64,000 bases of DNA, taken from positions 401,541-465,540 of the forward strand of contig JAXHLG010000002.1 of NCBI GenBank assembly GCA_034522495.1, given 5' to 3'. This DNA is from Candidatus Moraniibacteriota bacterium (lineage in GTDB: Bacteria; Patescibacteriota; Minisyncoccia; Moranbacterales; DUUL01). The notes below the pieces were generated by a model. That model made no database searches, was not told where the DNA came from, and saw nothing but the letters and a program-made list of their open reading frames with translations. Position numbers and translations under genes: made by a program. Below are positions 1,693-40,046 of this stretch, one piece after another (within the stretch, counting starts at the first letter, position 1; every line of letters begins with the position of its first letter).

Positions 1693-1789
1693 ATAATGTT
1701 ATTGTTATCCCATCTCTCTATTTTTGATTTTTGAATTAGGATCGTGGAGGCTCTGCCAACTTATGCTGTTTATAAATATTACATAAAAC

Positions 1790-2506
1790 ATGAGAAAAGA
1801 AGGATTTTACAACGGCGAATATTATCATATATACAACAGAGGAGTTGACAAAAGAGAGATATTTTTAAATGAGCAATATTTCAGGAGATTTTTGCTCTAC
1901 ATGAGAAAATTTAACAATAAATATGCGCCAGGGGGTCTTTATGAAGAATACTTAAGAAATAAAAAGAAGGATTCAAGCAATGAAGATGAAGGTGGTAGAG
2001 GGGGTGGTAGAGGTTCAGCCTCCACACTGGAGGCTGAACCTCTACCACCCTCGCAAGACGAAAAAATTGTCGAGATAATCGCCTATTGCCTCAATCCAAA
2101 TCATTTTCACTTATTGCTCAAGCAGAAAGAGGAGGGCGGAATTTCTTCTTATATGCAAAAAATTGGAACTGGCTTTACCATGTTCTTTAATAAGAAAAAC
2201 GACCGCTCTGGCTCACTTTTCCAAGGCAGGTATAAGTCAGTCCACATAGACACTAACGAATATCTCCTATACCTAAGTGCTTACATTAACTGCAATAATT
2301 TTATTCACGGATACAACAACAGCCCCGAAGATTGGCTCTATTCCAGCTACTTGGATTTTATAGGAAGAAGAGAAGGGATACTTCCTAAAAAAAGCATTAT
2401 CCTCGAACAATTTGACAACAGCTTTAAAGACTACAAAAAATTTTGTAAAATGAATATGGAATATCTTAAAGACAGAAAAGAAATGCAAAAGTATTTGCTG
2501 GAGTAA
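1790..2506 (+). CDS. Y1/HUH transposase of the IS200-like superfamily (RAYT-like), carrying an internal low-complexity/palindrome insertion
   Basis: YHIYNRGVDKREIF N-terminus, HUH motif NPNHFHLLL, GSLFQGRYKSVHI, and a Tyr-bearing helix EYLLYLSAYINCNN. Solitary gene with no IS ends recognised around it. Confidence 0.7.
   Translation: MRKEGFYNGEYYHIYNRGVDKREIFLNEQYFRRFLLYMRKFNNKYAPGGLYEEYLRNKKKDSSNEDEGGRGGGRGSASTLEAEPLPPSQDEKIVEIIAYCLNPNHFHLLLKQKEEGGISSYMQKIGTGFTMFFNKKNDRSGSLFQGRYKSVHIDTNEYLLYLSAYINCNNFIHGYNNSPEDWLYSSYLDFIGRREGILPKKSIILEQFDNSFKDYKKFCKMNMEYLKDRKEMQKYLLE
2003..2049. repeat. Perfect 47-bp REP-like palindrome inside the RAYT-like CDS
   Basis: ggtggtagaggttcagcctcca-cac-tggaggctgaacctctaccacc: 22-bp arms with a 3-nt loop. 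Read in frame as GGRGSASTLEAEPLPP. The core GGAGGCTGAACCTCC recurs at 13760-13794. Confidence 0.9.
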
Positions 2507-3639: not shown

Positions 3640-3771
3640 CCATTGTTCAATTGTTCAATTGTTGTGTTACACAGATACTCTATTTTTCTAGGTATTTGAC
3701 TAATTGAAGTTTATTGGGAATCGCAGAGTGTATACAATTAACAATGAAACAATGTAGCAATGGAACAATGA
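3640..3771. mobile_element. MITE-like element, family A (CATTGTT/AACAATG terminal repeat arrays), copy A1
   Basis: Left end ccattgttcaattgttcaattgttg, right end aacaatgaaacaatgtagcaatggaacaatg (its inverse complement). Core resembles 15431-15653 and 16600-16797. Confidence 0.6.
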
Positions 3772-3798
3772 TAACTAACTAATTAATAATATTATTCT

Positions 3799-4350: not shown

Positions 4351-4395
4351 TTTTTTTATTGTTTGCGTTTAAAATAGAGGACAGTGAAGAAGAGG

Positions 4396-4439
4396 CTCCA
4401 AGGTTCAACCTTCGGCTCGCCGAAGGTTGAACCTTGGAG
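4396..4439. repeat. REP-like palindrome, CCAAGGTTCAACCTTCGG variant
   Basis: ctccaaggttcaaccttcgg-ctcg-ccgaaggttgaaccttggag, with perfect 20-bp arms. Confidence 0.9.
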
Positions 4440-4475
4440 TCTCCTAAGATACTTTGAATAATAACAAAATTTAAA

Positions 4476-5769: not shown

Positions 5770-5949
5770 GTGAGGGTCTGCCCCCCCTCTGCGGGGAAAA
5801 ATATATAAAATATTTATATTTTTAAAGCGGTGCGAAACCTGAAACCTTTCGGGCAAGAATTTTTATCTTATTTATTGGATTTTGGTTAAAATAATTTTTT
5901 CCCACAGGTCGGAAGTAGCAGTTTTTTTCAAAAATCAGCATCCCCTAGT
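5770..5949. mobile_element. MITE-like element, family C (TTAGGGCCTGCCCCGC...GCAGCCCCTAA), degenerate copy C1
   Basis: gagggtctgccccccctctgcgggg...aaatatttatatttttaaagcggtgcgaaa...tttttttcaaaaatcagcatcccctag aligns by eye with 59233-59392 and 63569-63746. Confidence 0.6.
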
Positions 5950-7973: not shown

Positions 7974-8013
7974 CCAAGGTTCAACCTTCGGCCAGCCGAA
8001 GGTTGAACCTTGG
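7974..8013. repeat. REP-like palindrome, CCAAGGTTCAACCTTCGG variant
   Basis: ccaaggttcaaccttcgg-ccag-ccgaaggttgaaccttgg, lying between two GT genes of the same operon. Confidence 0.9.
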
Positions 8014-9155: not shown

Positions 9156-9963
9156 TGAGCTAGTGAGCATAATTGTTCCTACTAAAAATTCCCAAAATTT
9201 TATCGGGAATTGTTTGGAATCATTGAGCAGGCAAAGCTACTCTAACATCGAAATTATTGTGGTGGACAATTTCAGTTCGGATCGAACCAGGGAGATTGGG
9301 AAGAAATATACCAATAAAGTTTTCCAGAAAGGGCCGGAGAGGAGCGCTCAGAGAAATTTTGGCGCCAGGAAGTCCAAGGGTGATTATTTGCTTTTTGTGG
9401 ACAGCGATATGGTTGTGTTTGAGCAGGTGGTGGAAAAATGCGTGGAGAAAGTCAAAAAAAGCGGTGCCGAAGCTGTCGTAATTCCGGAATTTTCTTTCGG
9501 AAAGGGATTTTGGGCTAAATGCAAACAACTGGAAAAAGCTATTTATATGGGAGACGAATTGATTGAGGCCCCCAGGTTTTTTTCCAAAAAAGCCTTTGAG
9601 AAAGTCGGCGGCTATGACGAGCAGATAATAAGCGGAGAGGATTGGATGCTCAAGGAGAAGATTGAGAAAAAACATGCTATTGGGCGAATTGAAAAGCCTA
9701 TTTACCACAATGAAGGCGGACTTTCCTTTTTCAGGTCTTTGGGGAAGAAATATTACTACGGCAAGCATTTTCATCATTATAGAAAAAAAAGCGCTGAAGC
9801 GGCTGCGAGAATTGACCCCCTGATCCGCTCCAAGATTTTGTTGATGAAGTTTAATTTATATAAAAAACATCCTTTGGTTTTTGCCGGCTTAACAGTTTTG
9901 AAAACCGGAGAATTTTTGGCCGGCCGATGCGGCATGATTATTGCTAAATTTAAAAATAAATGA
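9139..9963 (+). CDS. Glycosyltransferase family 2
   Basis: VSIIVPTKNSQNFIGNCLESLSRQSY..IEIIVVDNFSSDRT, FVDSDM. Confidence 0.85.
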   Translation: MKIMSSELVSIIVPTKNSQNFIGNCLESLSRQSYSNIEIIVVDNFSSDRTREIGKKYTNKVFQKGPERSAQRNFGARKSKGDYLLFVDSDMVVFEQVVEKCVEKVKKSGAEAVVIPEFSFGKGFWAKCKQLEKAIYMGDELIEAPRFFSKKAFEKVGGYDEQIISGEDWMLKEKIEKKHAIGRIEKPIYHNEGGLSFFRSLGKKYYYGKHFHHYRKKSAEAAARIDPLIRSKILLMKFNLYKKHPLVFAGLTVLKTGEFLAGRCGMIIAKFKNK

Positions 9964-11000
9964 AAAAATCTCAGGCCTATTTTAAAAGAAAGCCGTTGAT
10001 CTCAGTGATTGTAGCGAACTACAATGGAAAAAAATGGCTCACGGAATGCTTTGAATCCATCTTTAAGCAAAAATATTCGCCGCTGGAAGTGATTTTAGTT
10101 GACAATGCGTCTTCTGACGGGAGTGTTGAATTTGCCAGAAGCAATTATCCGCAAATCAAGGTGATTCAAGCAAAAGAAAACCTCGGTTTTGCCGGAGGGA
10201 ACAATTTAGGCTTTGAAATGTCTTCGGGAAAATATATTTTGTTTTTGAATAATGATGTTAATTTTTCCGAGAATCTTATTGCGGAGCTCTTCAATGGGAT
10301 GCAAAAAAACAAGGGAGCGGGCTGTTTATGGCCGAAAATAAGGCTGATGGAGGAGCCGGAAAAACTGGATATGTGCGGAAGCTACTGGACTAACTCGACT
10401 CTTCTTTATCATGAGGGCTACAAAAAAAGGCAGGATAAAAAAAATTATAATCAACCAAGAAATTATTTTTCGGCCAAGGGGGCGGCTCTTCTGATGCCAA
10501 GAAGCGTAATTGAGGAGGCGGGTTTGTTTGATGGAGATTTCTGGTGTTTTTATGAAGAGACGGATTTTTGCCACCGGCTATGGCTCTCCGGCTACGAGTG
10601 TCTTTATTGGCCGGAAGCGGAAATCTTTCATGCGGTTGGCGGCACCAGTGTTTTACAGTTGCAATCTTATTTGCAATATCATAATTTCAAAAATAAGCTT
10701 TGCAGTTTTTTGAAAAATTTTGAAGGGAGAACGCTTATTAGAGTTCTGCCAATATTTTTTTTGGTTAACGCTTTTTTGTGGTGCTATTGGATTTTGACTT
10801 TTAAATGGGCAAACTCTTTTGCTTTGTGCCGGGCTTGGTGGTGGAATTTGTCTCATCTAAAAGAAACCTTGAAAAAGAGAAAAGGAGTGCAGCAGTGGAG
10901 AGAGGTTTCAGATAAAGATGTTTTCAGGCAAACTCAAAAAAATCCCCCCTTTAAATATTATTATTATCTTTTAACCGGACTGGAAAAGTATAAAAATTAA
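9960..11000 (+). CDS. Glycosyltransferase family 2
   Basis: ISVIVANYNGKKWLTECFESIFKQKY..VILVDNASSDGS, FLNNDV. ATGA overlap with the upstream gene. Confidence 0.85.
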   Translation: MKKSQAYFKRKPLISVIVANYNGKKWLTECFESIFKQKYSPLEVILVDNASSDGSVEFARSNYPQIKVIQAKENLGFAGGNNLGFEMSSGKYILFLNNDVNFSENLIAELFNGMQKNKGAGCLWPKIRLMEEPEKLDMCGSYWTNSTLLYHEGYKKRQDKKNYNQPRNYFSAKGAALLMPRSVIEEAGLFDGDFWCFYEETDFCHRLWLSGYECLYWPEAEIFHAVGGTSVLQLQSYLQYHNFKNKLCSFLKNFEGRTLIRVLPIFFLVNAFLWCYWILTFKWANSFALCRAWWWNLSHLKETLKKRKGVQQWREVSDKDVFRQTQKNPPFKYYYYLLTGLEKYKN

Positions 11001-11875: not shown

Positions 11876-11912
11876 TGGAGGTTGAGCCACCATTATGGAG
11901 GCTCAACCTCCA
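11876..11912. repeat. REP-like palindrome, GGAGGTTGAGCC variant
   Basis: tggaggttgagcc-accattatgga-ggctcaacctcca, between convergent genes. Confidence 0.8.
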
Positions 11913-13719: not shown

Positions 13720-13759
13720 GGTTTGCTGATTGATGTTAGGAAATTATGAGCATTGGAGT

Positions 13760-13794
13760 TGGAGGCTGAACCTCCACTGGAGGTTCAGCCTCCA
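13760..13794. repeat. REP-like palindrome, GGAGGCTGAACCTCC variant
   Basis: tggaggctgaacctcca-c-tggaggttcagcctcca. Same core as the palindrome inside the RAYT-like CDS. Confidence 0.9.
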
Positions 13795-13895
13795 TTTTCG
13801 TAGCATGAAAGGAGAAATATCAAGGTTCAACCTCGAGATTTGTTAACTGTCAATTGTTAACTGTCAAGTGTTGAATAAAATCGCGATCCTGCCGT

Positions 13896-13943
13896 CCAAC
13901 ACACCTTCAAGGTGTGATGCATCACACCTTGAAGGTGTGTTGG
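13896..13943. repeat. Perfect 48-bp nested palindrome
   Basis: ccaacacaccttcaaggtgtgatg|catcacaccttgaaggtgtgttgg. Each arm is itself a hairpin (cacacctt-ca-aggtgtg). Followed by agtcttttttt. Confidence 0.9.
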
Positions 13944-14011
13944 AGTCTTTTTTTGCTTGGAATTTAAGTTGGAGTTAACTGTTAAGTGTCAATTGTTAAT
14001 TGTTGTCTCTG

Positions 14012-14083
14012 AGCCAGGGATGGGAATCGAACCCACAGCCTACGCGTTACGAATGCGTTGCTCTGCCATTGAGCCACCCTGGC
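14012..14083 (-). tRNA. tRNA-Thr (anticodon CGU)
   Basis: Reverse complement folds as GCCAGGG TG GCTC AATGGCA GAGC A ACGCA TTCGTAA CGCGT AGGCT GTGGG TTCGATT CCCAT CCCTGGC T. 72 nt, one A-C mismatch at 31-39, CCA not encoded. Confidence 0.8.
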
Positions 14084-15431: not shown

Positions 15432-15653
15432 ATTGTTCCATTGCTTCATTGTTAAATTGTTTTATTTTCATTGTTTCATTGATAAATAATAAAATTGTTC
15501 CATTGCTCTATTGCTAAATTGTTATGATACATAAATACTGTGTTTTCTAAATATTTAGCTAGTTGAAGCCTATTGGCAATCGGATAGTGCTTACAATTAG
15601 CAATAAAATAATTTGACAATGTAACAATGAAACAATTGAACAATGAAACAATT
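15431..15653. mobile_element. MITE-like element, family A, copy A2 (upstream of ftsE)
   Basis: cattgtt-type repeats on the left, aacaatg-type on the right. The core ttctaaatatttagctagttgaagcctattggcaatcggatagtgcttacaatt is the inverse complement of the core at about 16600-16720. Confidence 0.7.
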
Positions 15654-15725
15654 AAAAGATTAAAAAATTTAAAGAATAGCAAGTTGTAAAGTTACTGACT
15701 GATAGTTTATTAATAAATATTATCT

Positions 15726-16448: not shown

Positions 16449-16797
16449 TTCCATTGTTCCATTGTTCCATTGCTAAATTGTTGTGTTACATATATATCGA
16501 GGCATTTTCTGATTTATAATCTTAAGTCATTTAAACATGCAAACATATAAACATATAAACATTTAAACATTTAAACAAATATTTTTTTAATTGTTCAATT
16601 GTTACATTGTCAAATTATTTTATTGCTAATTGTATTTACTATCCGATTACTGATAGGCTTAAACTAGCTAAATATTTAGAAAACACAGTATTTATGTAAC
16701 ATAACAATTTAACAATTTAACAATGAAACAATTTTATTATTTAACAATAAAACAATGAAAATACAACAATTTAACAATGAAGCAATGAAACAATGAA
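16449..16797. mobile_element. Composite MITE-like region: family A copy A3 inverted relative to A2, plus an 8-mer tract
   Basis: ttccattgttccattgttccattgct..., then a catttaaacat tract, then aattgttcaattgttacattgtcaaattattttattgctaattg...aacaatgaagcaatgaaacaatg. Confidence 0.7.
16528..16577. repeat. Degenerate tandem 8-mers (CATNTAAA)
   Basis: catttaaacatgcaaacatataaacatataaacatttaaacatttaaaca. Confidence 0.8.
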
Positions 16798-16821
16798 GGA
16801 ATTAAATTTTAAGAAACAAAA

Positions 16822-17766
16822 ATGTTTTTAAAGCTAGCCAGAACGTTTAAGACCGGATTTCAGAATTTTTACCGCAATGGGCTTTTGTCGGTTTTGACTA
16901 TCAGTGTGATTGTAATCGCCATATTTATTATCAATATCCAGGCAGGAGTGACTTATTCGGAAAATCTTTTGCTGGAGAACATTAAAAACAGGGTTAGCAT
17001 TTCGGTTTATTTCGATCCTGAAACTCCGGAAGGAAAAATCAAAAGCATCAGAAACGAATTCCAACAATTCGGAGAGGTGGAGTCTGTAGAATATGTTTCC
17101 AAAGAACAAGCCTTAAAAGAATTCAAGGCGGAGAATGAAGACAGTGAAATATTGCAGCAATCCATAGAAGAACTGGATGAAAATCCCTTTGAAGCTTCTT
17201 TGGGCATCAAGGCTTATAATCCTTCAGACTATCAGCTGATCGCCGAAGCCATAAAGCAAGGGCAGTACAGTGATACGATTTCCAGCGTTAATTATGATAA
17301 GTATGAGTCGGTGATTGATAATTTAAGCAGCCAGATTGAATCGAACCGGAAAATAGGCTTCATTCTCGGCGGAACGCTGTCTTTAATCGCGATTTTGATC
17401 ACCTTCAACAGCATCAGGATAACTATGTACGCTTATGGGAAGGAGATTGAAATTATGAAACTGGTAGGGGCTTCCAATAATTACATCAGAATGCCGTTCA
17501 TTTGGGAAGGATTGTTTTACGGGGTTATTTCTTCTTTGATAGCGCTTCCTCTTTCCTACGGGTATTTGAAGTTTGTGGCTACCAACGAGGTTTCCGGTTC
17601 GATCATGCCCTTCTCCAGCGGCATATACTTGAATGAATTTTTAAACGGCTTCTTTATGGAGAACCTGGTTTGGATAATTTTGGCCGAAATCGCGGCCGGC
17701 ATTCTGCTGGGAGTTGTAAGTTCGGTTATCGCTATCAGGAAATATTTGCAAGAGCCGAATAAATAA
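16822..17766 (+). CDS. ftsX: Cell division permease-like protein FtsX
   Basis: N-terminal TM, periplasmic domain, three C-terminal TM helices (MKLVGASNNYIRMPFIWEG). Partner of ftsE. Confidence 0.85.
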   Translation: MFLKLARTFKTGFQNFYRNGLLSVLTISVIVIAIFIINIQAGVTYSENLLLENIKNRVSISVYFDPETPEGKIKSIRNEFQQFGEVESVEYVSKEQALKEFKAENEDSEILQQSIEELDENPFEASLGIKAYNPSDYQLIAEAIKQGQYSDTISSVNYDKYESVIDNLSSQIESNRKIGFILGGTLSLIAILITFNSIRITMYAYGKEIEIMKLVGASNNYIRMPFIWEGLFYGVISSLIALPLSYGYLKFVATNEVSGSIMPFSSGIYLNEFLNGFFMENLVWIILAEIAAGILLGVVSSVIAIRKYLQEPNK

Positions 17767-18370: not shown

Positions 18371-18413
18371 CATCTAAACATCTAAACATTTAAGCATTTA
18401 AACAGTTAAACAT
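18371..18413. repeat. Degenerate tandem 8-mers (CATNTAAA)
   Basis: catctaaacatctaaacatttaagcatttaaacagttaaacat. Confidence 0.75.
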
Positions 18414-18722
18414 CCGTGTTTATAAAGCTGCCATTAGTTGTAAGCAATTGTCTATAGCTTCTAGTAATTGTTAGCGGGGAGGTTATTTGTATTAGGGTGA
18501 TGGTGTATTAGGAGATGAATTTCAGTGTTTTATGGTTGATGTGAAATTTTTTGAAACTCATAGAAACTGATAGAAATTAAGAAATTGGGGAATTTGGAAA
18601 ATTAAACCCGACAAACACAGCTTGTCGGGTTTAGTAAACTCTTCATTGGCCGGTTATTTGAATATAAAGTTGGAATGAATGGTTGTATTTGATATATGAT
18701 AGAAGTTTTTTGAAACTTATTT

Positions 18723-19097
18723 AGGAATTACGCGCTTGCCTCTTTATTGCCTAAAAAAAGAGAGCAAAGCTAGGCTTGGTTTTTGCATTAGGGGACTGTT
18801 TCCAAACACCGTTTTAGTACGAAATTTCTTGTTTTTTAGATAAATTTTTCAAATAATTTTTGTCCCGCATTGCGGGATAGCCTTAGCTAAGGCAAAAAAA
18901 TTTTTGGAAAATTTAGCAAAAAAGGTGGGATTGCAGTAAAAACGGTGCTTGGAAACAGTCCCATTAGTTCGAAAAAATATTTTAGAAGCAAAAAGGGTTT
19001 TCTATTAAAAATATCTTAACAAGCCTGAAAGGCAAGTGCGCATAAAACCAAGCCTTGCTTTGCTCTCGGCATTGCCGGAGAGCAATTGCGTAATTCC
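18723..19097. mobile_element. MITE-like nested palindrome, family B, copy B1
   Basis: Outer arms aggaattacgcg.../...gcgtaattcct, middle arms agagcaaagc.aggcttggttt, inner arms gggactgtttccaaacacc/ggtgcttggaaacagtccc, central hairpin cccgcattgcggg. Confidence 0.75.
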
Positions 19098-19129: not shown

Positions 19130-20797
19130 ATGGCTGGAGATAATCAGGGAGGGGAAAAGAATAAGAAAAATAGAAGAAATCAGTTGAGCTTGACGCCCGG
19201 AGTGGTGGGTTTGTTTGAAACGGCGTACGCGCAGCATAAAGAGAAGCAAAGCAAGAGTGGTGACAACGAGCCGAAAATAAAAGTTTCTACCGCTATCTCC
19301 AAGCTGTCTTTTTACTATGAAAAAATCCGCAACGCGGTGGACTATAAGGATGAGTATCTTCTCAGAAAAACTGCCATTGAAAGAATTTTAAAGAGGCAGA
19401 TTATTATCGAAAGCGTTCTTCAACCGGCCAAGAGCTCCAAGATTGCTCAGCATTTGATGATTGAGCTGATTCGAGGAGAGTATTTGGCAAACAACTCGGT
19501 TCCGGAAAAGAAAATAGATGAGGTTGCCAAGGTTGTTCAAAAGTATATCAAGCTTCACAACAAAGCCATCAGGGGAAGTTTGGCCTCCAAGCGCAACAAA
19601 GAACTGTCCGATTGGATAATAGCCTTGATGGCCAGCGAGATAGAAGAAGAATTGGGAAGAGATAAGGTGGTGGAGAAGGCGATCAGTTTTATGTTTCAGG
19701 TTTTAAGGGACAAGGTTATTTTACCCGATGACGCCGACTATAATCAAAACAAGGATATTCAAATATATGTTAGCATTTATCGAACCTTTCTCAAATTTGA
19801 TACCGATATGGTCAGCTTTATTTTATTTAAATCCGCTGTAGATAGTTGGAAAAACGCGGGCGAGGAGACCATTGAAAAAACAGCAAGAGAGCTGGACTCG
19901 ATCCGAGCCACTATTGAAAATCAAGTTAACAGCCCGATTTCCAATAAGCTAAAGAGAGTTATTTCCAGATACACGGTTTTTTTCGAGATTTTGACGGAGG
20001 TGATCAAAAAAGATCCGGTAAAGGCATATAGCAAGGCCAGCAGAGACCCGGACTCTTTCAGGGAAATGATACGGGAGAGTTGTAGGAAGAAATATGAGAC
20101 TGTCCGAGCTAAAATCTGGAGAGCCAGCTTCAGAAGCATTGTGTATATTTTCATAACCAAAAGCCTGCTGGTGTTTGCGCTTGAAATCCCCGTTATTAAT
20201 CTTTTGGGCGAGTCGGTGAATTATATTTCTTTGGCTGTGAACATCGGTTTTCCTCCGCTTCTTTTGTTTTCCATCATAATGACGACTAAAACGCCTACAA
20301 GCCGCAACACTCAAAAAATCATTGAAGGCATAGAGGGGCTGGTCCATCCCGGCAAGGAGGTTCAAGCGTATCGGCTGAGGACTTCCGCCTTGAGAGGAAA
20401 GACTTTGAACACGGTATTCGGAATTATTTATCTGGGAACTTTTTTGATAACTTTTGGAGGTATTGTTTGGATTTTGAATATGATAGGATTTCACTTTGTC
20501 AGCATCGTAATATTCTTGTTTTTCTTGGCTTTAGTTAGCTTCTTCAGCGCCAGAATCAGAAAAAAAGCTCATGAGCTGATGGTGGTGGAGCCCAAGGAGA
20601 GTATTTTCCGACTTTTCACCGACTTTTTCTACACCCCGGTTCTAGCGGCGGGAAAGTGGCTGAGCGAGAATTTCTCCAAACTGAACGTGTTCGTCATTGT
20701 TCTGGATTTCATCATCGAGGCCCCGTTCAAATTTTTCGTGGAAGCCACAGAGGAATGGTCCAAGTATGTCAAAGAGAGGAGAGAGGAGATAGAGTGA
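19130..20797 (+). CDS. Hypothetical protein with a soluble N-terminal half and a C-terminal multi-TM domain
   Basis: 555-aa ORF with hydrophobic helices from about aa 330 onward. No family recognised. Confidence 0.6.
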   Translation: MAGDNQGGEKNKKNRRNQLSLTPGVVGLFETAYAQHKEKQSKSGDNEPKIKVSTAISKLSFYYEKIRNAVDYKDEYLLRKTAIERILKRQIIIESVLQPAKSSKIAQHLMIELIRGEYLANNSVPEKKIDEVAKVVQKYIKLHNKAIRGSLASKRNKELSDWIIALMASEIEEELGRDKVVEKAISFMFQVLRDKVILPDDADYNQNKDIQIYVSIYRTFLKFDTDMVSFILFKSAVDSWKNAGEETIEKTARELDSIRATIENQVNSPISNKLKRVISRYTVFFEILTEVIKKDPVKAYSKASRDPDSFREMIRESCRKKYETVRAKIWRASFRSIVYIFITKSLLVFALEIPVINLLGESVNYISLAVNIGFPPLLLFSIIMTTKTPTSRNTQKIIEGIEGLVHPGKEVQAYRLRTSALRGKTLNTVFGIIYLGTFLITFGGIVWILNMIGFHFVSIVIFLFFLALVSFFSARIRKKAHELMVVEPKESIFRLFTDFFYTPVLAAGKWLSENFSKLNVFVIVLDFIIEAPFKFFVEATEEWSKYVKERREEIE

Positions 20798-20801
20798 GGT
20801 T

Positions 20802-20842
20802 CATATTATCATATTATCATTTTAACATTTTATCATATTAAC
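20802..20842. repeat. 8-mer tract (CATNTTAN), left part, interrupted by IS copy 1
   Basis: catattatcatattatcattttaacattttatcatattaac continues at 22175-22268 on the other side of the IS. Confidence 0.75.
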
Positions 20843-22174
20843 ATCACTCGTGTCCGGTTCACAAATCCCACAAACAAGCCTGTTTTCCGCCGCTTCTTTT
20901 AAAATTTTGCAATTCAGGATTACTAAACAGCTCAACCATGGGAGTTTTAGTTAGGACTGACACGTTCAAAATTTGTAATATTTCGTAGAGGTTCTTTTCA
21001 ATCTTCCATTGTTTTTTGAAAATGGCTACTACAAGATAAGCGCAAATGGCAATGCAGATTTGGGTTTTTACCGCGTTCTCTGAGCGGCCCCAGAAGGCTT
21101 TGATCTTGAGATGCTGCTTGATCCACTTGAAAAACAATTCAATTTGCCAGCGGTGCTTGTACAGGGCGGCTATTTTCTCAGCAGAAAGATTAAAATCGTT
21201 GCTCAAGTAAGTGAAATACTTTTTGCTTTCTTGATCAAAGAATTTAATCCTCCTTAATTTCTCCGGATACCTCTTAGAGCTTTTCCAATTGCTAAGCTTG
21301 ATTATCTGATCGCAGCAAATCCCTGTTCCTTTTTCCTTCCTGTTGGAATAAATTCTTTCAAATCCCAGACACTCCTTGGCTCTGATAACAAAGAAGGCTC
21401 CTTTTCGGTGAATTTTGTAAAGCCTGCCGTAATCTATGTAGCCCCGGTCCAGAATGTAATGCGCTTCCGGTTCAATTTCGATCGAATCCAGGAATTCCAG
21501 ATCGTGCCTTTTGGCGCTAGTGATTTCAAACATGGCGGGAATATTGCCGTCAAGGTCCATTTGCAGATTCAGCTTCACCCCGGCTCTTACAGTCTTGAGC
21601 TTGGCCCAGGAGAAAAGAGAAAGGCAGAGTTCGATTACCGATGAATCTATAATGTAGCAAGCCCCGTTCAGTTCCAAATTAAAATTGTCATCGCCTGCAT
21701 ACAGCTTTCTGGCTTTATCAATCAATATTCCCGCCAGGTCCCTGTAAATCCTCCAATCCCTTTTTTCGCTGGCATCGGAAAGAGTTGATCTTGAAATAAT
21801 GCTGGAAAAACCCAAGTTGCGGATTTTTCCCTGCTGGGAGCTCAAGCAGTTGACAACGTCCCGGAGACTTTCCCGATGAGAAATCTGCCCAAAAAAGAGA
21901 GCTAGGAATTGATTCCAGCAAGTAAGTTTTTTTACTGCCGAATTGCCCCGGTATCTATCCACGCATCGGTTGAATTCATAACGTGGGATGTGATCTGCAA
22001 GCTGAGAAAGAACATATTTTCCATGATACATTTGAGTAATTGATAATTGCTTAAAAAACAATATCAATTATCCCATTATTTCCGTTCAAGCCAAAAAAAA
22101 TTCTTGTCCCTTGATTTTGGCTCTGGAAAGCCAAAATCAGGAGATGAGAAAAAAATTAACCGGACACGAGTGAT
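20843..22174 (-). mobile_element. IS4-family insertion sequence, copy 1 (1332 bp)
   Basis: Perfect 17-bp terminal inverted repeats ATCACTCGTGTCCGGTT. Flanking direct repeat attaac (6 bp; 10 bp atattaacat if the ends are taken as CACTCG). Single DDE transposase ORF. Confidence 0.9.
20859..22067 (-). CDS. IS4-family DDE transposase
   Basis: 402 aa. DUF4372-like N-terminus (YHGKYVLSQLADHIPRYEFNRCVDRYRGN), D in YIIDSSVIE, D in YILDRGYIDY, and Y(2)R(3)E(6)K in YKHRWQIELFFKWIK. Confidence 0.85.
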   Translation of the reverse strand: MILFFKQLSITQMYHGKYVLSQLADHIPRYEFNRCVDRYRGNSAVKKLTCWNQFLALFFGQISHRESLRDVVNCLSSQQGKIRNLGFSSIISRSTLSDASEKRDWRIYRDLAGILIDKARKLYAGDDNFNLELNGACYIIDSSVIELCLSLFSWAKLKTVRAGVKLNLQMDLDGNIPAMFEITSAKRHDLEFLDSIEIEPEAHYILDRGYIDYGRLYKIHRKGAFFVIRAKECLGFERIYSNRKEKGTGICCDQIIKLSNWKSSKRYPEKLRRIKFFDQESKKYFTYLSNDFNLSAEKIAALYKHRWQIELFFKWIKQHLKIKAFWGRSENAVKTQICIAICAYLVVAIFKKQWKIEKNLYEILQILNVSVLTKTPMVELFSNPELQNFKRSGGKQACLWDL

Positions 22175-22268
22175 ATTAACATATAAACATTTTAACATAT
22201 TATCATATTATCATTTTATCATATGAACATTTAAGCATTCAAACATACAAGCATCTAAACATTTAATC
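22175..22268. repeat. 8-mer tract, right part
   Basis: attaacatataaacattttaacatattatcatattatcattttatcatatgaacatttaagcattcaaacatacaagcatctaaacatttaatc. Confidence 0.75.
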
Positions 22269-22349
22269 AATTTTATTTTTAGGGACTGCTTCCAAACACC
22301 ATTTCGTTACGAAATTTCCAATTATTTCTTGAACTCGGGAACTAAAAAC

Positions 22350-22372
22350 TTGACAGGATTTATTATAGATAT
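22350..22372 (+). promoter_or_regulatory. Orphaned -35 half of the promoter of the 148-aa anchor-protein gene, split by IS copy 2
   Basis: TTGACA (22350-22355) plus 17 nt, then the IS end. The homologous intact promoter is at 32271-32298. Confidence 0.4.
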
Positions 22373-23704
22373 ATCACTCGTGTCCGGTTCACAAATCCCA
22401 CAAACAAGCCTGTTTTCCGCCGCTTCTTTTAAAATTTTGCAATTCAGGATTACTAAACAGCTCAACCATGGGAGTTTTAGTTAGGACTGACACGTTCAAA
22501 ATTTGTAATATTTCGTAGAGGTTCTTTTCAATCTTCCATTGTTTTTTGAAAATGGCTACTACAAGATAAGCGCAAATGGCAATGCAGATTTGGGTTTTTA
22601 CCGCGTTCTCTGAGCGGCCCCAGAAGGCTTTGATCTTGAGATGCTGCTTGATCCACTTGAAAAACAATTCAATTTGCCAGCGGTGCTTGTACAGGGCGGC
22701 TATTTTCTCAGCAGAAAGATTAAAATCGTTGCTCAAGTAAGTGAAATACTTTTTGCTTTCTTGATCAAAGAATTTAATCCTCCTTAATTTCTCCGGATAC
22801 CTCTTAGAGCTTTTCCAATTGCTAAGCTTGATTATCTGATCGCAGCAAATCCCTGTTCCTTTTTCCTTCCTGTTGGAATAAATTCTTTCAAATCCCAGAC
22901 ACTCCTTGGCTCTGATAACAAAGAAGGCTCCTTTTCGGTGAATTTTGTAAAGCCTGCCGTAATCTATGTAGCCCCGGTCCAGAATGTAATGCGCTTCCGG
23001 TTCAATTTCGATCGAATCCAGGAATTCCAGATCGTGCCTTTTGGCGCTAGTGATTTCAAACATGGCGGGAATATTGCCGTCAAGGTCCATTTGCAGATTC
23101 AGCTTCACCCCGGCTCTTACAGTCTTGAGCTTGGCCCAGGAGAAAAGAGAAAGGCAGAGTTCGATTACCGATGAATCTATAATGTAGCAAGCCCCGTTCA
23201 GTTCCAAATTAAAATTGTCATCGCCTGCATACAGCTTTCTGGCTTTATCAATCAATATTCCCGCCAGGTCCCTGTAAATCCTCCAATCCCTTTTTTCGCT
23301 GGCATCGGAAAGAGTTGATCTTGAAATAATGCTGGAAAAACCCAAGTTGCGGATTTTTCCCTGCTGGGAGCTCAAGCAGTTGACAACGTCCCGGAGACTT
23401 TCCCGATGAGAAATCTGCCCAAAAAAGAGAGCTAGGAATTGATTCCAGCAAGTAAGTTTTTTTACTGCCGAATTGCCCCGGTATCTATCCACGCATCGGT
23501 TGAATTCATAACGTGGGATGTGATCTGCAAGCTGAGAAAGAACATATTTTCCATGATACATTTGAGTAATTGATAATTGCTTAAAAAACAATATCAATTA
23601 TCCCATTATTTCCGTTCAAGCCAAAAAAAATTCTTGTCCCTTGATTTTGGCTCTGGAAAGCCAAAATCAGGAGATGAGAAAAAAATTAACCGGACACGAG
23701 TGAT
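22373..23704 (-). mobile_element. IS4-family insertion sequence, copy 2 (1332 bp), same orientation as copy 1
   Basis: Same 17-bp TIRs. Flanking direct repeat agatat (or atagatatat). The transposase and all listed spurious ORFs translate identically to copy 1. Confidence 0.9.
22389..23597 (-). CDS. IS4-family DDE transposase (identical to 20859..22067)
   Basis: 402-aa translation identical to copy 1. Confidence 0.85.
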   Translation of the reverse strand: MILFFKQLSITQMYHGKYVLSQLADHIPRYEFNRCVDRYRGNSAVKKLTCWNQFLALFFGQISHRESLRDVVNCLSSQQGKIRNLGFSSIISRSTLSDASEKRDWRIYRDLAGILIDKARKLYAGDDNFNLELNGACYIIDSSVIELCLSLFSWAKLKTVRAGVKLNLQMDLDGNIPAMFEITSAKRHDLEFLDSIEIEPEAHYILDRGYIDYGRLYKIHRKGAFFVIRAKECLGFERIYSNRKEKGTGICCDQIIKLSNWKSSKRYPEKLRRIKFFDQESKKYFTYLSNDFNLSAEKIAALYKHRWQIELFFKWIKQHLKIKAFWGRSENAVKTQICIAICAYLVVAIFKKQWKIEKNLYEILQILNVSVLTKTPMVELFSNPELQNFKRSGGKQACLWDL

Positions 23705-24202: not shown

Positions 24203-26879
24203 CTTTTCGGCGCGCGCGAAAAAAGCAGTTGAAAAAAGCGGGTCAACAGCCCCATAAAACGCCAAGGCCGTTCATATATATCTTAGGGAAAAAGCTATGA
24301 AATATTTAAATAAATCAAGTCCGATATCCTGTATATTATTATTGGCCTTGTTTTCCCTCCTCTTTTCCTTCTCAACGCTAGGCGGCAATAACGCTTCAGC
24401 TGTTGTTATGATACCCTCGGGAGAAGACGGCGCTGAGGATAAAACAATTGCTGATATTAGCATCAGCCAATTAAAAGTGGTTGAACAAAAAGACCATCAA
24501 GTCAAGCTGTCTTTTGCTGTTTACAATCTTTCCAACAGATTTCAGCCGGATGTTGAATATGGCATAAGATTATTCAGGAAAGAGGCGGTTGAGTCGGAGC
24601 ACGGCACGGAAGAAGAGGGAACAAGCTCCAAAGAGTTTCACCCGGGGGATGTCTTGTATGAGAAAATAGATCCCGAGAGCATGGATTTATCTCCAGGAGA
24701 GAAAATTGACAAGAAAGAGGCCTACGAGATGCCTTCCCATCTGGAAGGAGAATTCCTAATCCAGTTATTTGCCAAGACTTCCTCCGGCCTGTTTTTGGGT
24801 ATGGCCGAAACTGAAGTTGTAAAAATGGAAAAAGGAGAAGACGGCATAGAGCTGGACCACAAAGAATGCCGCCTTCTGAAGAATTCCAATACAGAAGAAG
24901 AATACGCTCTGTCCGATCCGATATACATTAATTCTCAAGAGCAATTAGCCATCAAATGCTTATTGAGCAATGATTCCCCGGAAACAAGAACGATAATGCC
25001 CGCCTTTGATATTTATGAAGAAAGCATTTTCGGGGAAAAAATAGAAACGGAATCAAACCCCGGCAAGATTTCAATTGAACCGAAAGAATCCAGAGAGATA
25101 AGCCTGAATGTACCGAAAACTAAATCCCCCGGTTCGTATTATGCTGCTTTGCATTTAAAGCAGGGGGAAGCGGCGGTTTCTAACAGGATATATTTCAACT
25201 ATGCCGTAGAAGGGTTATCCGCCTCCATTTATGACATCAAGGCGAATCAAGAAGAAAATCAAAACATCTCGGTTTCTTTTTACTGGAGCGGAATCAGGGA
25301 GAATTTTGCTCCCGGGACTCAAGAAAGGCCAAGCCCAAAAAATCAAGACCTTCAACTAAGCCTAAGAATCGTTGACCAGCATGGAAAAGACTGCGCTTCT
25401 CCCGTAACAAAATCTTTAAGCGGCGAAAAGAATTACTCGGAATTTTCTACTTCCGTGATCAAAAGCTGCGCTTCTCCTTACGCGGAAGCCAAGATAAAAA
25501 ACCAAAAAGGCGAGGTTCTCGACGAAATTAAAGTTAGAGCCGCCTCCATGGAAAAGAAAGAAAAGAAAGAAGCTGCTCCCGGGGAAAACGCTTCCGAGGA
25601 CAACGCCCTGATTTTAATTGCCTCAGCTCTGATTGTTTTGTTCTTGATTTTTCTTCTGTGGTGGCTTTTGGTTAAGAAAAAGCTGCTCAAAAAGAGCTTT
25701 CTGGCCTTGTTTGTCTTTTTGTCAGCTTTTGTTTTTCTGGCATGGGATATTGGAGAGGTGAACGCGGGAGGTTGGAAATGGCTTGGTTATCGTATGCTAG
25801 GATATACTAGTCAACCTAACCACTGGGAACCTAAGGATTATTACACATATCATTATTATGAAGATGAAAGCTACCCCGCTCAGGCGGATGATGAGATTAC
25901 CGGTCAAATTTATGGGAAACTTTATGGAAAGCACTGTAGCGGCTGGATGAAGGTTAACGGTGTTACGGTGTGGCGCCTACGGTTTCCAACAGACTTTGGC
26001 AGTGGTTCTGGTCCTGGTACTTATATTAGCGGTCAAAGGAGCTGGCCGCATGGATGTGAAGGTACTTACCGGGTTGAATATGAGTGGATGTTTAATTATG
26101 ATAGTAGTGGTGATGGTGTTTGCAACGAAACAGCTGAAGGAGATAACACTCAGAAGTATAAAATTATTTGCGATGAAGCCGAAGATTATCGCTGCCGCTG
26201 GAATAGCGTGTGGAAATACGACGCCTGCGGCTGCCCCGACGAATATATTGAAAGCTGCCCCACCGGATACTGCGATTACGGAGGCGACGTGGATTATTAT
26301 TGTTCCGGAGACAAGCTGATGGGCGTGTATGATTACGTAAGACAAGGCTGCCGGGCGGGAGCTTGCTATACTGGCAATGTATGGCACAACTCCTGCGGAT
26401 CATTTGTAAAAGAGGATTGCTCTGATCTGCCCAACTATTGCGAAGAGTGGGATGATGACTGGACTTGTAAAGACGAAACCACGAAAATGAAAAGCAGGGA
26501 ATGCTATAATTCCGGCTGTTCTTCCGCCTCTTGCTACGGAGATTCATATACTGAAACTAAAGAAGAGGAATGCTTGAAAGACGGAGTTCAGGGCAGATGC
26601 ATCAACGGCGCTTGTTTCTATCAAGGAGCCTGCGGCAGCGCAAATGACTCGGATCCGACGTGCGAGGCGCCGAAAGACAATTTATGTTTAATTAATTTTT
26701 ATGACGACCCAGTGGTCCGGTACGACAGCGCTGACGGCGATAAGTCAAAAGACAAATACTACTGGACCTGCGAAGGAGCCGATCAAGACAGCGATCAGGA
26801 TGATGCTAATTGCAGCGTGGAAAGAGATTGCCAAGTAACGTCAGAGGGCTGGCGCGAGGCGTCGTTTTGATTGTTCTGC
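24203..26879 (+). repeat. Tandem repeat unit 1 (2677 bp)
   Basis: Starts at cttttcggcgcgcgcgaaaaaagc. The same junction recurs at 26880 and 29560. Confidence 0.95.
24297..26870 (+). CDS. Surface protein, copy 1 (857 aa): signal peptide, about 430-aa N-terminal domain, TM hairpin, Cys-rich C-terminal domain
   Basis: SP LLLALFSLLFSFSTLGGNNASA. TM1 ALILIASALIVLFLIFLLWWLLV, loop KKKLLKKS, TM2 FLALFVFLSAFVFLAW. 28 Cys after TM2 (my count). Terminal CGSAN...LC...YWTC...CSV module. Confidence 0.8.
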   Translation: MKYLNKSSPISCILLLALFSLLFSFSTLGGNNASAVVMIPSGEDGAEDKTIADISISQLKVVEQKDHQVKLSFAVYNLSNRFQPDVEYGIRLFRKEAVESEHGTEEEGTSSKEFHPGDVLYEKIDPESMDLSPGEKIDKKEAYEMPSHLEGEFLIQLFAKTSSGLFLGMAETEVVKMEKGEDGIELDHKECRLLKNSNTEEEYALSDPIYINSQEQLAIKCLLSNDSPETRTIMPAFDIYEESIFGEKIETESNPGKISIEPKESREISLNVPKTKSPGSYYAALHLKQGEAAVSNRIYFNYAVEGLSASIYDIKANQEENQNISVSFYWSGIRENFAPGTQERPSPKNQDLQLSLRIVDQHGKDCASPVTKSLSGEKNYSEFSTSVIKSCASPYAEAKIKNQKGEVLDEIKVRAASMEKKEKKEAAPGENASEDNALILIASALIVLFLIFLLWWLLVKKKLLKKSFLALFVFLSAFVFLAWDIGEVNAGGWKWLGYRMLGYTSQPNHWEPKDYYTYHYYEDESYPAQADDEITGQIYGKLYGKHCSGWMKVNGVTVWRLRFPTDFGSGSGPGTYISGQRSWPHGCEGTYRVEYEWMFNYDSSGDGVCNETAEGDNTQKYKIICDEAEDYRCRWNSVWKYDACGCPDEYIESCPTGYCDYGGDVDYYCSGDKLMGVYDYVRQGCRAGACYTGNVWHNSCGSFVKEDCSDLPNYCEEWDDDWTCKDETTKMKSRECYNSGCSSASCYGDSYTETKEEECLKDGVQGRCINGACFYQGACGSANDSDPTCEAPKDNLCLINFYDDPVVRYDSADGDKSKDKYYWTCEGADQDSDQDDANCSVERDCQVTSEGWREASF

Positions 26880-35546: not shown

Positions 35547-35981
35547 ATGTTCATCGGCGAGTATCAACATTCTATTGACGCGAAAAAGAGGCTGGCTATG
35601 CCTTCCAAGTTCAGGCGGAACTTTAAAAATAAAGCGGTGGTGACGAGGGGTTTGGACAATTGCTTGTTTGTTTACCCGATGAAAGAGTGGGAAAAGATTG
35701 CGGAGAAACTTGGCAATATGCCGGTGGGGGAAAGCGCCACCAGAAGCTTTGTCAGGCTTATGCTTGCCGGAGCGGTGGATGTGGAGCTGGATTCTCAGGG
35801 AAGGGTTTTGGTTCCGGATTATTTGAAAAAATACGCCGGCCTGAACAAAGAAGTGGTTATCGCCGGTTTGTATAATCGGTTGGAAATTTGGGACAAGAAG
35901 AACTGGGAAAAATACAAAGAAAGCGCCGAAAAGAATCAGGACAAAATTGCGGAGGAATTGGGAAAGCTGGGAATATATTGA
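35547..35981 (+). CDS. mraZ: Transcriptional regulator MraZ
   Basis: MFIGEYQHSIDAKKRLAMPSKFR..., a second DxxGR repeat (ELDSQGRVLVPDYL), position upstream of rsmH. Confidence 0.95.
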   Translation: MFIGEYQHSIDAKKRLAMPSKFRRNFKNKAVVTRGLDNCLFVYPMKEWEKIAEKLGNMPVGESATRSFVRLMLAGAVDVELDSQGRVLVPDYLKKYAGLNKEVVIAGLYNRLEIWDKKNWEKYKESAEKNQDKIAEELGKLGIY

Positions 35982-35983
35982 TT

Positions 35984-36009
35984 CATTTAAACATATAAGC
36001 ATTTAAACA
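35984..36009. repeat. Short 8-mer tract (CATNTAAA)
   Basis: catttaaacatataagcatttaaaca. Confidence 0.6.
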
Positions 36010-36092
36010 AGATTTTCTACAAAGTTCATAAAGTTATCGAGATTCTTAACATTGGACGCTAATTACCAATTACCAATCACAATTATAAAAAT

Positions 36093-37154
36093 ATGCATAT
36101 TCCGGTTTTGTTGGGGGAGGCGGTTGAAAAATTAAATTTAAAAAAAGGGGATGCGGTTGTGGACGCCACTCTGGGGGGAGGCGGGCACAGCCGGGAAATA
36201 ATGAATAAAATTGGCAAAAATGGTATATTAGTTGCCTTTGACCTGGATTCAGAAGCTGTCTCTGAATTTGAAAAATCTCTGAAAAAACAAAAAAAGGAGC
36301 CGGAAGTTTTTTTGAAAATTGAAAATTTTGCCAAAATCGACGAAGTTCTTGAATCGGAAAATTTGAGCAAAGTTGATGCGATTCTTGCTGACTTGGGCTG
36401 GCGGTCCGATCAAATGGAGAATGAGAATTATGGAATGAGCTTTCAAAAGGACTCTCCTCTGGATATGCGACTAGCCCCGAACCATACGGTACTGGGCAAG
36501 GCTCAGAACCATGCGGATCGGGGCAAGGTCCAGAACCATGCGGTACGGGGCAACGCCCAGAACCATGCGGTACGGGGCAACGCCCAGAACCATGCGGTAC
36601 TGGGTAAAACAGGAGGGTTGACGGCTGGAGAAATTGTCAATACTTGGAAAGCTGAAGATTTAAAAAGATTGTTCAAGGAATATGGAGAAGAGAAATTTGC
36701 CGGAAGAGCGGCCAAGGCTATTGAAAAACAAAGAAAAATCAAGGAAATAGAGACAACGAAAGAGTTGTCTGAGGTAATTAAAAAAGCTATTGGCGGGCAT
36801 TACAAAACAGCTAAGATTCATCCGGCTACCCGAGTCTTCCAAGCTTTAAGAATTGCAGTTAATAATGAGTTGGAGAATTTGCGGGAATTTTTGGAAGCCA
36901 GTCTGAGGATACTCAAGCCGGGAGGGAGGATTGCAATTATCAGTTTCCACTCGCTGGAGGACAGGACGGTTAAAAAATTCTTTCGGGTAAATGCCGGGGG
37001 ATGTATTTGCCCAAAAGAATTTCCGGTGTGCGTTTGCGGCAAGAAGCCAAAGATTAAAATCATCACCAAAAAGCCGATTACTCCGACTGATGAAGAAATT
37101 AGACGGAACCCGAGGTCTCGGAGCGCCAAGATGCGCGTAGCGGAAAAATTATAA
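36093..37154 (+). CDS. rsmH: 16S rRNA (cytosine1402-N4)-methyltransferase RsmH with an in-frame repeat insertion
   Basis: HIPVLLGEAVEKL, DATLGGGGHS, DLGWRSDQ, PLDMRL, ISFHSLEDRTVKKFF, plus dcw context. Confidence 0.95.
   Translation: MHIPVLLGEAVEKLNLKKGDAVVDATLGGGGHSREIMNKIGKNGILVAFDLDSEAVSEFEKSLKKQKKEPEVFLKIENFAKIDEVLESENLSKVDAILADLGWRSDQMENENYGMSFQKDSPLDMRLAPNHTVLGKAQNHADRGKVQNHAVRGNAQNHAVRGNAQNHAVLGKTGGLTAGEIVNTWKAEDLKRLFKEYGEEKFAGRAAKAIEKQRKIKEIETTKELSEVIKKAIGGHYKTAKIHPATRVFQALRIAVNNELENLREFLEASLRILKPGGRIAIISFHSLEDRTVKKFFRVNAGGCICPKEFPVCVCGKKPKIKIITKKPITPTDEEIRRNPRSRSAKMRVAEKL
36479..36613 (+). repeat. In-frame tandem repeat, 27-bp unit x about 5, inside rsmH
   Basis: Units start at 36479, 36506, 36533, 36560, 36587 (gaaccatgcggtacggggcaacgccca). 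They encode QNHAVRGNA-type nonapeptides. Confidence 0.9.
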
Positions 37155-39970: not shown

Positions 39971-40046
39971 GATAAACTATTCAACCGTAATTAGTGACAA
40001 GTGGCTGAACTATCGCTTATAATTAATGTTTTAACGAAAACACCTT

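Follow-up and report, generated by a model that had tools for sequence, protein, structure and literature searches.

The RAYT-like gene

We analysed a 64,000-nucleotide (nt) stretch of a Candidatus Moraniibacteriota genome (contig JAXHLG010000002.1 of GenBank assembly GCA_034522495.1), which is called the window throughout. Near its start is an intact open reading frame (ORF) for a protein that resembles the REP-associated tyrosine transposases (RAYTs), where REP stands for repetitive extragenic palindrome. A perfect palindrome of the REP type lies inside this reading frame. The palindrome belongs to the conserved locus architecture of a RAYT subfamily found across the Patescibacteria, which has up to three in-frame hairpin sites as well as flanking copies. 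The features of the gene are as follows.

1790-2506, plus strand: intact ORF of 238 aa for a RAYT-like tyrosine transposase of the Y1 HUH type (ORF list, Pfam, NCBIfam, Foldseek).
1961-2065, plus strand: region of the insert peptide (residues ~58-92); in the AlphaFold2 model it is a disordered loop on the surface, with helix 50-63 before it and strand 94-101 after it.
2102-2110, plus strand: codons of the HUH motif (H105-F-H107), which falls on H59/H61 of Escherichia coli TnpA_REP and is invariant in 31 homologs.
2282-2284, plus strand: candidate catalytic tyrosine Y165, which falls on Y115 of 4ER8 by residue count and HMMER alignment and is invariant in the family.

The protein is identical to an NCBI record named 'MAG: transposase [Candidatus Moranbacteria bacterium]'. 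Residues 90-167 give a match to the Pfam family Y1_Tnp (PF01797) with E=1.1e-8. Both motifs that the original prediction relied on are present, NHFHLLL and the C-terminal QGRYKS...EYLLYLSAYINCNN. The NCBIfam model for RAYTs, NF047646 (REP_Tyr_transpos), gives 47.2 bits against a cut-off of 80 and covers residues 89-185 only. The AlphaFold2 model has a mean pLDDT (predicted local distance difference test) of 80 and a pTM (predicted template modelling score) of 0.76, and the Y1 core is present in it. The top Foldseek match in the PDB is 4er8_A, which is TnpA_REP with a REP hairpin bound (E=1.7e-6, TM(target) 0.65). The next matches are the TnpA proteins of IS608, ISDra2 and IS200. The insert lies before the HUH strand, and the HUH histidines and tyrosine line up with those of TnpA_REP: H105, H107 and Y165 are invariant across the 31 homologs when these are aligned with each other and, by HMMER, with 4ER8.

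The loop encoded by the palindrome covers residues 64-91. Its pLDDT is below 50 at residues 70-86, and strand 94-101 then leads into the HUH motif. The loop differs in length and sequence between homologs. A pseudogene is ruled out by the uninterrupted ORF and the intact catalytic residues. Since the HUH and tyrosine residues are intact, the Y1 fold is predicted and the loop is disordered, the gene looks functional and the insert appears to sit in a tolerant place. The frame is preserved, as the original prediction had it, and of its two alternatives the one in which the enzyme tolerates a REP in a loop is well supported.

The 5' GT(A/G)G head of REPs is found neither in the window nor in the ortholog consensus. 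The fold and catalytic residues are those of a RAYT, but the protein falls under the NCBIfam cut-off and its hairpins do not have the GTAG head, so it is best called a member of a divergent RAYT subfamily. The gene is single copy in the window, as tblastn with the protein finds itself alone; weak matches at 24204, 26875 and 29555 probably arise by chance. Three genomes of the locus set described below have two divergent RAYT paralogs each (L008/L017, L010/L032 and L050/L054).

The palindrome and its family in the window

The palindrome and its relatives in the window are listed here. Where no strand is given the element was not assigned to one.

1745-1752, plus strand: a TGGAGGCT half-site ~37 nt before the ATG, tentatively a remnant of an upstream flanking hairpin.
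1991-2014, plus strand: 12-nt tandem duplication, GGTGGTAGAGGG at 1991-2002 and GGTGGTAGAGGT at 2003-2014, encoding GGRG-GGRG.
2002-2050: perfect 49-bp palindrome, an inverted doublet of a REP-type unit, REPIN-like, in frame, encoding residues ~71-87.
2507-2533: hairpin starting 1 nt past the stop codon, with its core at 2512-2528 (6 nt past the stop).
4390-4445: intergenic REP doublet of the CCAAGGTTCAACCTTCGGC subfamily.
7974-8013: intergenic REP doublet of the CCAAGGTTCAACCTTCGGC subfamily, with perfect 19-nt arms.
11876-11912: intergenic REP doublet of the TGGAGG[CT]T[CG]A[AG]CC[AT]CCA subfamily, between convergent ORFs.
13757-13797: intergenic REP doublet with a core as in the ORF copy.
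13820-13836: single intergenic REP-like unit (TCAAGGTTCAACCTCGA).
13895-13944: intergenic perfect 50-bp palindrome, a ACACCTTCAAGGTGT doublet of a third subfamily.
49813-49829: single intergenic REP unit, the one family member found at a distance of over 12 kb from the RAYT gene.

The original prediction described a perfect palindrome of 47 bp at 2003-2049. It is real and perfect, but it is actually 49 bp long. The arms are 23 nt each (2002-2024 and 2028-2050) around a 3-nt loop, and with one mismatch the pairing reaches 1998-2054. Folded as single-stranded DNA it has a free energy of -31.2 kcal/mol (z=-9.2). None of 200 shuffles was as stable, which rules out chance or low complexity as its origin. 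Each arm is a small hairpin in its own right (AGAGG-TTCAG-CCTCC). The loops of the two arms are reverse complements of each other and not identical copies, which is what an inverted doublet, but not a tandem one, should show. The 12-nt duplication sits on the 5' edge of the palindrome and allows an alternative pairing of 1988-2001 with 2039-2052. The reading frame through all of this is intact. This is what is seen in intragenic REPs and in-frame insertions of the Rickettsia palindromic element (RPE) type: a member of a dispersed family lies wholly within an intact ORF, in a tolerant region.

Three related hairpin patterns have 7, 13 and 10 matches in the window, where ~0.1 would be expected (for the first pattern, 7 matches at no more than 2 mismatches against 0.12 expected). 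There are nine copies of the family. Eight are within 12 kb of the RAYT gene, and all but the one in the ORF are intergenic. The enrichment of the hairpin that had been predicted is therefore present within the window, and the related hairpins reported near 4396, 7974 and 11876 are real and all intergenic. The hairpin at 13760-13794, which had been equated with the core in the ORF, is of the same family but not quite the same. The core in the ORF (GGAGGCTGAACCTCT) and the intergenic one (GGAGGCTGAACCTCC, at 13761 and 13779) differ by one base pair, and the change is compensated in both arms. As doublets with arms of 17-25 nt that are each a small hairpin, the elements fit the definition of REPINs, at a modest copy number. 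Their feet are TGGAGG or CCAAGG, while in most other lineages they are (C)ACTTGG...CCAAGT(G); GTAG is in neither.

The hairpin after the stop codon has a core that is a 2-mismatch member of the CCAAGGTTCAACCTTGG subfamily. It is also terminator-like, and its position is that of the downstream hairpins in orthologs (median 3 nt past the stop). The half-site upstream has no partner arm, and its full 17-mer is unmatched at up to 3 mismatches. On either side of the 13895-13944 palindrome there are short direct repeats (TTGTTAACTGTCAA and similar, 13840-14010), and a tRNA gene on the minus strand (14012-14083) adjoins this region.

Hairpins at conserved sites in orthologs

Homologs that are 50-63% identical to the protein have palindrome-like peptides at the same position (GGSTSIMEVEP, GSKSPIGLLEP, GLSPHKGDLVP), and a few have them at two more positions. 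We therefore turn to the orthologs at the DNA level. The set consists of 80 loci from GTDB species genomes, with proteins 34-53% identical, of which the 79 full-length ones were used. They come from Moraniibacteriota, Paceibacteria, Nomurabacteria, Giovannonibacteria, Falkowbacteria and Uhrbacteria among others. Ten further loci were added from metagenomes. The minimum free energy (MFE) of all 36-nt windows of the 79 genes was mapped on the protein alignment. The background MFE is -3.2 kcal/mol, and ~1% of orthologs are at or below -10.

Three sites stand out from this background. Site 1 holds a perfect or near-perfect hairpin directly before the HUH strand, and the hairpin centres fall on one alignment column. 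At residues 74-82 the mean MFE is ~-12, and 51-67% of orthologs per position are at or below -10. About two-thirds of the orthologs have a strong hairpin at this site. Site 2 is the loop after the helix of the catalytic tyrosine. The mean MFE at residues 176-183 is ~-6.5 with ~25% of orthologs at or below -10. Site 3 is the C-terminal tail, with a mean of ~-4.5 and ~20% of orthologs. All three are loops or tails in the AlphaFold2 model. In the window only the following row needs to be added.

2315-2332, plus strand: site 2, residues ~176-181, empty in this genome and filled by a hairpin in about a quarter of orthologs.

The close Moranbacteria relatives of the window (L081-L085) have perfect site-1 palindromes of 38-53 nt. 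Their core, ATGGAGG[CT]T[CG]A[AG]CCTCCAT, is that of the window family. The original prediction treated the palindrome as a single unusual insertion. There is an insertion in this gene, but the scope is larger, because the architecture is family-wide. Orthologs have palindromic DNA at the same site with a sequence that differs per genome, and not a shared peptide without a palindrome. The architecture also has limits. Hairpins are missing both inside and beside the gene in the most distant orthologs (the CLMPNHFH / HxNP type). The control gene, rayT of E. coli, is flanked by REPs on either side, and its ORF is free of hairpins of at least 9 bp.

One can imagine that the palindrome is nothing more than chance low complexity, an assembly artefact, or a protein motif that happens to be encoded palindromically. 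Contigs from metagenomes frequently end in the site-1 palindrome, and one locus (L001, 768-819) has NN at its centre, so assemblers do struggle here. However, the stability of the fold is far outside that of shuffled sequences, and over 50 independent assemblies, produced in many studies, have site-1 hairpins, all of them in frame. Pairing is also maintained although the peptides vary, and the model shows the loop as disordered. Together, varying peptides with kept pairing and the disordered loop rule out a protein-level motif. We find this whole group of explanations barely credible.

It must be added that palindromes break metagenome assemblies at the RAYT gene and so yield truncated gene calls. 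The truncated members of the protein cluster (70-81 aa and 151 aa) were considered as genes split by hairpins, but they look like assembly breaks. Two short members that were checked (P0133 and P0164) are the first or last gene of their locus, and P0164 (L091, 6-461) begins at base 6 of a contig end. A different case is L027, where a truncated N-terminal RAYT fragment and several hairpin copies (481-1400) lie upstream of a full-length RAYT gene with hairpin-type peptides at sites 1 and 2. This arrangement may be the remnant of a rearrangement at hairpins.

Internal copies match the flanks of their own gene

The same hairpins are found around the gene. Of 75 loci, 54 have a hairpin in the 120 nt upstream of the gene, with its end at a median distance of 17 nt from the ATG. 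Downstream, 38 of 78 loci have one. Flanking by cognate palindromic repeats is thus found on both sides in the orthologs, and in the window downstream, with a half-site only upstream. The central 14-15 nt of internal hairpins have a median identity of 1.00 to the hairpins on their own flanks, and 76% of such pairs are at least 0.85 identical. Against the hairpins of other loci the median is 0.40, and 2% of pairs reach 0.85. In the lineages with single hairpins the unit in common has a length of exactly 21 nt (7 codons) and the form CTTRG-N11-CYAAG (73/76 external and 37/37 internal copies). The middle 11 nt are specific to the genome. The bases beside the unit are C...G in external copies and A...T/C in internal ones, so that the core alone is common to both. 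Internal and flanking hairpins also tend to be present together (Fisher p=0.015). The locus is the classical arrangement of a RAYT flanked by REPs, plus copies within the ORF.

The distribution is centred on the gene. Inside RAYT ORFs there are 1.35 hairpins of any family per kb. Family-related hairpins have a density of 0.06-0.13 per kb in the zone 150-1000 nt away from the gene, and of 0.02-0.05 per kb at 1-10 kb. The last figure would mean tens of copies per Mb. Since the density falls with distance, the family is low-copy and centred on the RAYT locus. Outside the gene, ~10 of ~105 related copies are in other coding sequences, though ~85% of the DNA is coding. Proximity alone can be rejected as the cause of ORF occupancy, because there are at least 10 times fewer copies at 150-1000 nt.

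Some other genes that are intact do hold copies in frame. Examples are a radical-SAM gene (L081, 1125-1167) and large ORFs in three other loci (L007, 5018-5042 and 11222-11265; L023, 12399-12443; L053, 5856-7125). In-frame palindromic repeats thus occur more generally in these small genomes.

A DNA palindrome rather than an RNA element

A hairpin in a coding sequence would fold in the transcript too, and the predicted stability here is strong. This would suit a structure under selection in the mRNA, be it for pausing of translation, for stability or for termination, with no relation to REPs or RAYTs. To see what is being conserved, 36 single site-1 hairpins were aligned on their centres. Each of the 12 stem pairs varies on both sides. 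Compensatory cells number 130, as against 34 in shuffles, and 0/500 shuffles come up to the observed score. When the partner is slid by one column the pairing drops from 92% to 42-50%. The pairing percentage is partly by construction, as the sequences were selected for being hairpins, but the diversity of pair types is not. Meanwhile the peptides vary (GGSAS, GSSTP, GRQTS, GNPVS, GHRMS and others).

The conserved property is therefore pairing, and the question is in which molecule. With respect to the gene, the loops are oriented at random, and there are about as many A-C mismatches (9) as G-T mismatches (8). This argues for a symmetric DNA palindrome rather than an element of the sense-strand RNA, and with no sense-strand signature in orientation or mismatches we rejected an mRNA-specific structure, in a comparison of low statistical power. 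The stems are perfect Watson-Crick DNA palindromes that are identical to intergenic copies on either strand. A search of the window with Rfam at the gathering threshold found only a tRNA and nothing at the palindrome. Taken together these points make an mRNA structure a very improbable explanation.

Age and turnover of the sites

Site 1 has a fixed codon phase. The unit starts on the first codon base in 22 of 23 single-hairpin orthologs there and in 10 of 10 at site 2, and it is in another phase at site 3 (4/4). Some orthologs have decayed segments of unchanged length. The fixed codon phase and same-length decay point to an old, inherited site, and they are easier to reconcile with one ancient insertion maintained by local conversion than with repeated insertion. 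In L081, L082, L085 and the window the outer arms of the palindrome are specific to each copy and yet complementary, which suggests correction or extension templated by the hairpin.

One could go further and argue for a single ancient insertion at every site, homogenised by template switching during replication or by short-patch conversion, with no role for the RAYT. The fixed phase, the decayed segments and the copy-specific outer arms, which are typical of hairpin-templated correction, all agree with this. It does not explain why dispersed copies kilobases away share the inner sequence, as this needs a transposition-like process. Nor does it explain site 2. In the Moranbacteria that site has different hairpin families in different phases (L081, L084, L088), so insertion there is recurrent.

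At L088 a different family has arrived at site 2 in a comparison of close strains. Over the gene, L088 shares ~98% identity with L089/L090, and it differs from them at this site. L089 and L090 have CAC GGT TAT CAT GGA (HGYHG), which looks ancestral. L088 has CAT AAC TTG GGG ACT AAG TCC CTA AGT with the 23-nt hairpin ACTTGGGGACTAAGTCCCTAAGT (9944-9966). The family of this hairpin is also present as an intergenic doublet at L089 20073-20116. Given these points, an explanation that leaves out the RAYT altogether is improbable. In the cluster of at least 90% identity around L088-L090, most other amino-acid variation is in the site-1 peptide. The presence or absence of the intergenic doublet between L088/L090 and L089 was considered as another insertion, but the entire spacer differs and so it was not used.

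A probable copy of the enzyme's own substrate

We argue that the palindrome is, on balance, probably a resident in-frame copy of the enzyme's own REP-type substrate that sits in a permissive loop and is renewed by REP turnover. The locus would read, in order: hairpin, N-terminal part, site 1, catalytic core, site 2, C-terminal part, and a hairpin at site 3 or just past the stop. By analogy with E. coli TnpA_REP, the enzyme would bind and cut these hairpins in single-stranded DNA and join strands. If it acts mostly at its own locus, its gene and the adjoining DNA would gain or exchange hairpin units again and again, and selection would spare only those that are in frame in one of the three permissive loops. 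Turnover and hairpin-templated repair would then keep the arms complementary and the internal copies matched to the current family. Any influence on the expression of the gene would be a secondary consequence, and autoregulation via the hairpins is possible.

Several observations weigh against this account. The protein family is under the NCBIfam RAYT cut-off, and the hairpins are without the GTAG head and stem mismatch that E. coli TnpA_REP requires. The constant site-1 phase and the decayed segments of unchanged length fit inheritance better than repeated arrival. The event at L088 is a replacement of 12 nt by 24 nt and not a clean insertion. Away from the gene the family is low-copy, unlike classical REP families. 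Finally, neighbouring genes are as near to the flanking hairpins as the RAYT ORF is, and they are at least 10 times less occupied. Proximity and loop tolerance may therefore not suffice, and targeting or selection could contribute.

This last point leads to another scenario, in which the palindrome is a selected cis-regulatory or self-recognition element. The enzyme would bind the hairpins of its own gene, in single-stranded DNA or mRNA, and so limit its expression or keep master copies; the hairpins would be there by selection and not by mere tolerance. Although the orthologs are only 34-53% identical, about two-thirds of them retain site 1, and they do so in one and the same codon phase. The internal copies follow the genome-specific sequence of the flanking ones, and the two are correlated in presence. 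The upstream copy is close enough to the start codon to affect initiation. The hairpin density of the ORF is at least 10 times that of neighbouring genes at equal distance. However, sites 2 and 3 are patchy, and in some lineages the hairpin has decayed in place with the ORF kept. Strand and G-U patterns in the loops and mismatches give no sign of an RNA element. Other genes occasionally hold the same hairpins in frame. Trapping and conversion can also yield every observation that favours selection. We regard the selected element as the main rival explanation, though rather unlikely.

The broader form of this idea would be that cognate hairpins are kept by selection upstream, in frame and downstream alike, with the enzyme recognising its own gene (single-stranded DNA or mRNA) for autoregulation or to maintain master copies. 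We treat this as a tentative possibility. If it were true the gene would be built around its substrate. Master copies protected by the ORF would seed and re-synchronise the dispersed family, and this would be a physical linkage that keeps RAYT and REP matched.

Comparison with known systems

A first comparison is with E. coli RayT (TnpA_REP, yafM), which with its REPs and bacterial interspersed mosaic elements (BIMEs) makes up the 'REPtron' (Nunvar 2010, PMC2817692; Ton-Hoang 2012, PMC3333891; Messing 2012, PDB 4ER8). E. coli TnpA_REP binds REP hairpins as single-stranded DNA, cuts at C|T and transfers strands. The system described here is like it in having a Y1 HUH fold with the HUH motif and catalytic tyrosine, and 4er8_A is the closest structure. 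It is also alike in that the gene is bracketed by cognate palindromic hairpins that are dispersed in intergenic DNA too. The differences are these. E. coli rayT has its REPs on the flanks and none within, while here there are one to three in-frame copies at conserved positions. The hairpins here have ACTTGG/CCAAGT feet and perfect stems, without a GTAG head or an obligatory stem mismatch. With ~70 additional residues, the protein has one more helix and a helical domain at its C-terminus. The hairpin family has few copies, and these cluster at the locus.

The REPIN-RAYT systems of Pseudomonas and the enterobacteria (Bertels & Rainey 2011, PMC3116915; Bertels 2017, PMC5581495) offer a second comparison. 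As in REPINs, the elements of the window are inverted doublets of a short palindromic unit that form one long hairpin, and hairpin sequence and enzyme co-vary between genomes. The doublets here are more compact, with a spacer of 0-3 nt and a total of 35-55 nt, and the copies number tens rather than hundreds. The other difference is the presence of copies within the RAYT ORF, which none of the REPIN-RAYT papers reports as far as they were searched.

In-frame palindromes inside genes are known from the Rickettsia palindromic elements and from GTAG/CGTC REPs in uvrA, recB and others (Di Nocera et al. 2013, PMC3733652). In the latter study the dimers encode 20-30 aa, and occupancy of the same site is seen only in recB of two Xanthomonas species. 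The palindromes described here are similar: they are short, in frame, in a gene that stays intact, and their peptide is in a presumably tolerant region, with occasional copies in other genes. They differ in that the host gene is the element's own presumed transposase, in that the same sites are filled across a phylum-level radiation, and in that the internal copies match their own flanks.

IS200/IS605 elements also have a Y1 HUH gene between hairpins, which their enzyme recognises in single-stranded DNA, and the TnpA proteins of this group are the next-best folds. However, the repeated unit of such an element, tnpA with both ends, is not seen. There is one copy in the window and no repeated gene-plus-flank in the loci. 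The neighbourhoods of the RAYT gene differ between relatives, again without repeated copies. The hairpins here are also symmetric palindromes, with extra ones inside the ORF.

In-frame intragenic REPs and REPs that flank RAYTs were thus known already. What seems new is the cognate REP within a RAYT ORF, in the sense that no report of one was found in the full-text literature searched or in the main RAYT/REP papers, a search with most subscription papers outside its scope; this is absence of evidence. The original prediction had likewise been aware of no such case. Nothing was found on RAYTs of the candidate phyla radiation either, within the same literature and the same limits.

RAYTs and REPs have long posed a puzzle: what keeps a single-copy enzyme in step with its hairpins over millions of years, what restrains the activity of the enzyme, and how REPs move. 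This subfamily is a compact natural system for these questions. The probable substrate is in the coding sequence of the enzyme, it is codon-phased and matched to the flanks, and at least one gain has occurred between strains. One small protein and a handful of oligonucleotides would be enough to test how the substrate is recognised and targeted and whether the enzyme regulates itself. The hairpins also add genome-specific peptides to a conserved protein. At the very least, in-frame palindromic repeats are present in genes of several sampled Patescibacteria, and so are not confined to Rickettsia and a few proteobacteria.

Other repeats in the window

The window has other repeats besides the RAYT hairpins. 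Many intergenic regions have AT-rich arrays with an 8-nt period.

3719-3786, 15578-15689, 16513-16831, 18371-18426, 20786-20852, 22164-22283, 35977-36023 and 39831-39984: 8-nt periodic arrays.

These have several units of the AACAATGA, AACATTTA or ATCATATT types and are often directly upstream of genes. They may be phased arrays in promoter regions or for protein binding.

A second, unrelated family of small repeats consists of a CCCCGC...GCGGGG hairpin followed by AAAATATTTATATTTTTAAAGCGGTG (5782-5837, 57054-57109 and 59243-59298). This family is also found at 18863, 57165, 59241, 61884 and 63720. An element of ~170 nt is present at 18792-18962 and 45958-46118, and also at 22282-22352, with copies that are 90-92% identical. 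It is bounded by inverted GGGACTGTTTCCAAACACC / GGTGTTTGGAAACAGTCCC, which makes it similar to a miniature inverted-repeat transposable element.

There are larger duplications as well. A unit of ~2.68 kb occurs in three tandem copies that are 94-100% identical (24203-32000). A pair with a spacing of 1.53 kb is 98% identical (20829-21128 and 22359-22658), and each copy is then followed by the same imperfect inverted repeat with 22-nt arms (22101-22150 and 23631-23680). Lastly, a 27-nt tandem repeat of 4-5 copies (CCAGAACCATGCGGTACGGGGCAACGC) lies at 36476-36610, presumably as a 9-aa repeat in a coding region.

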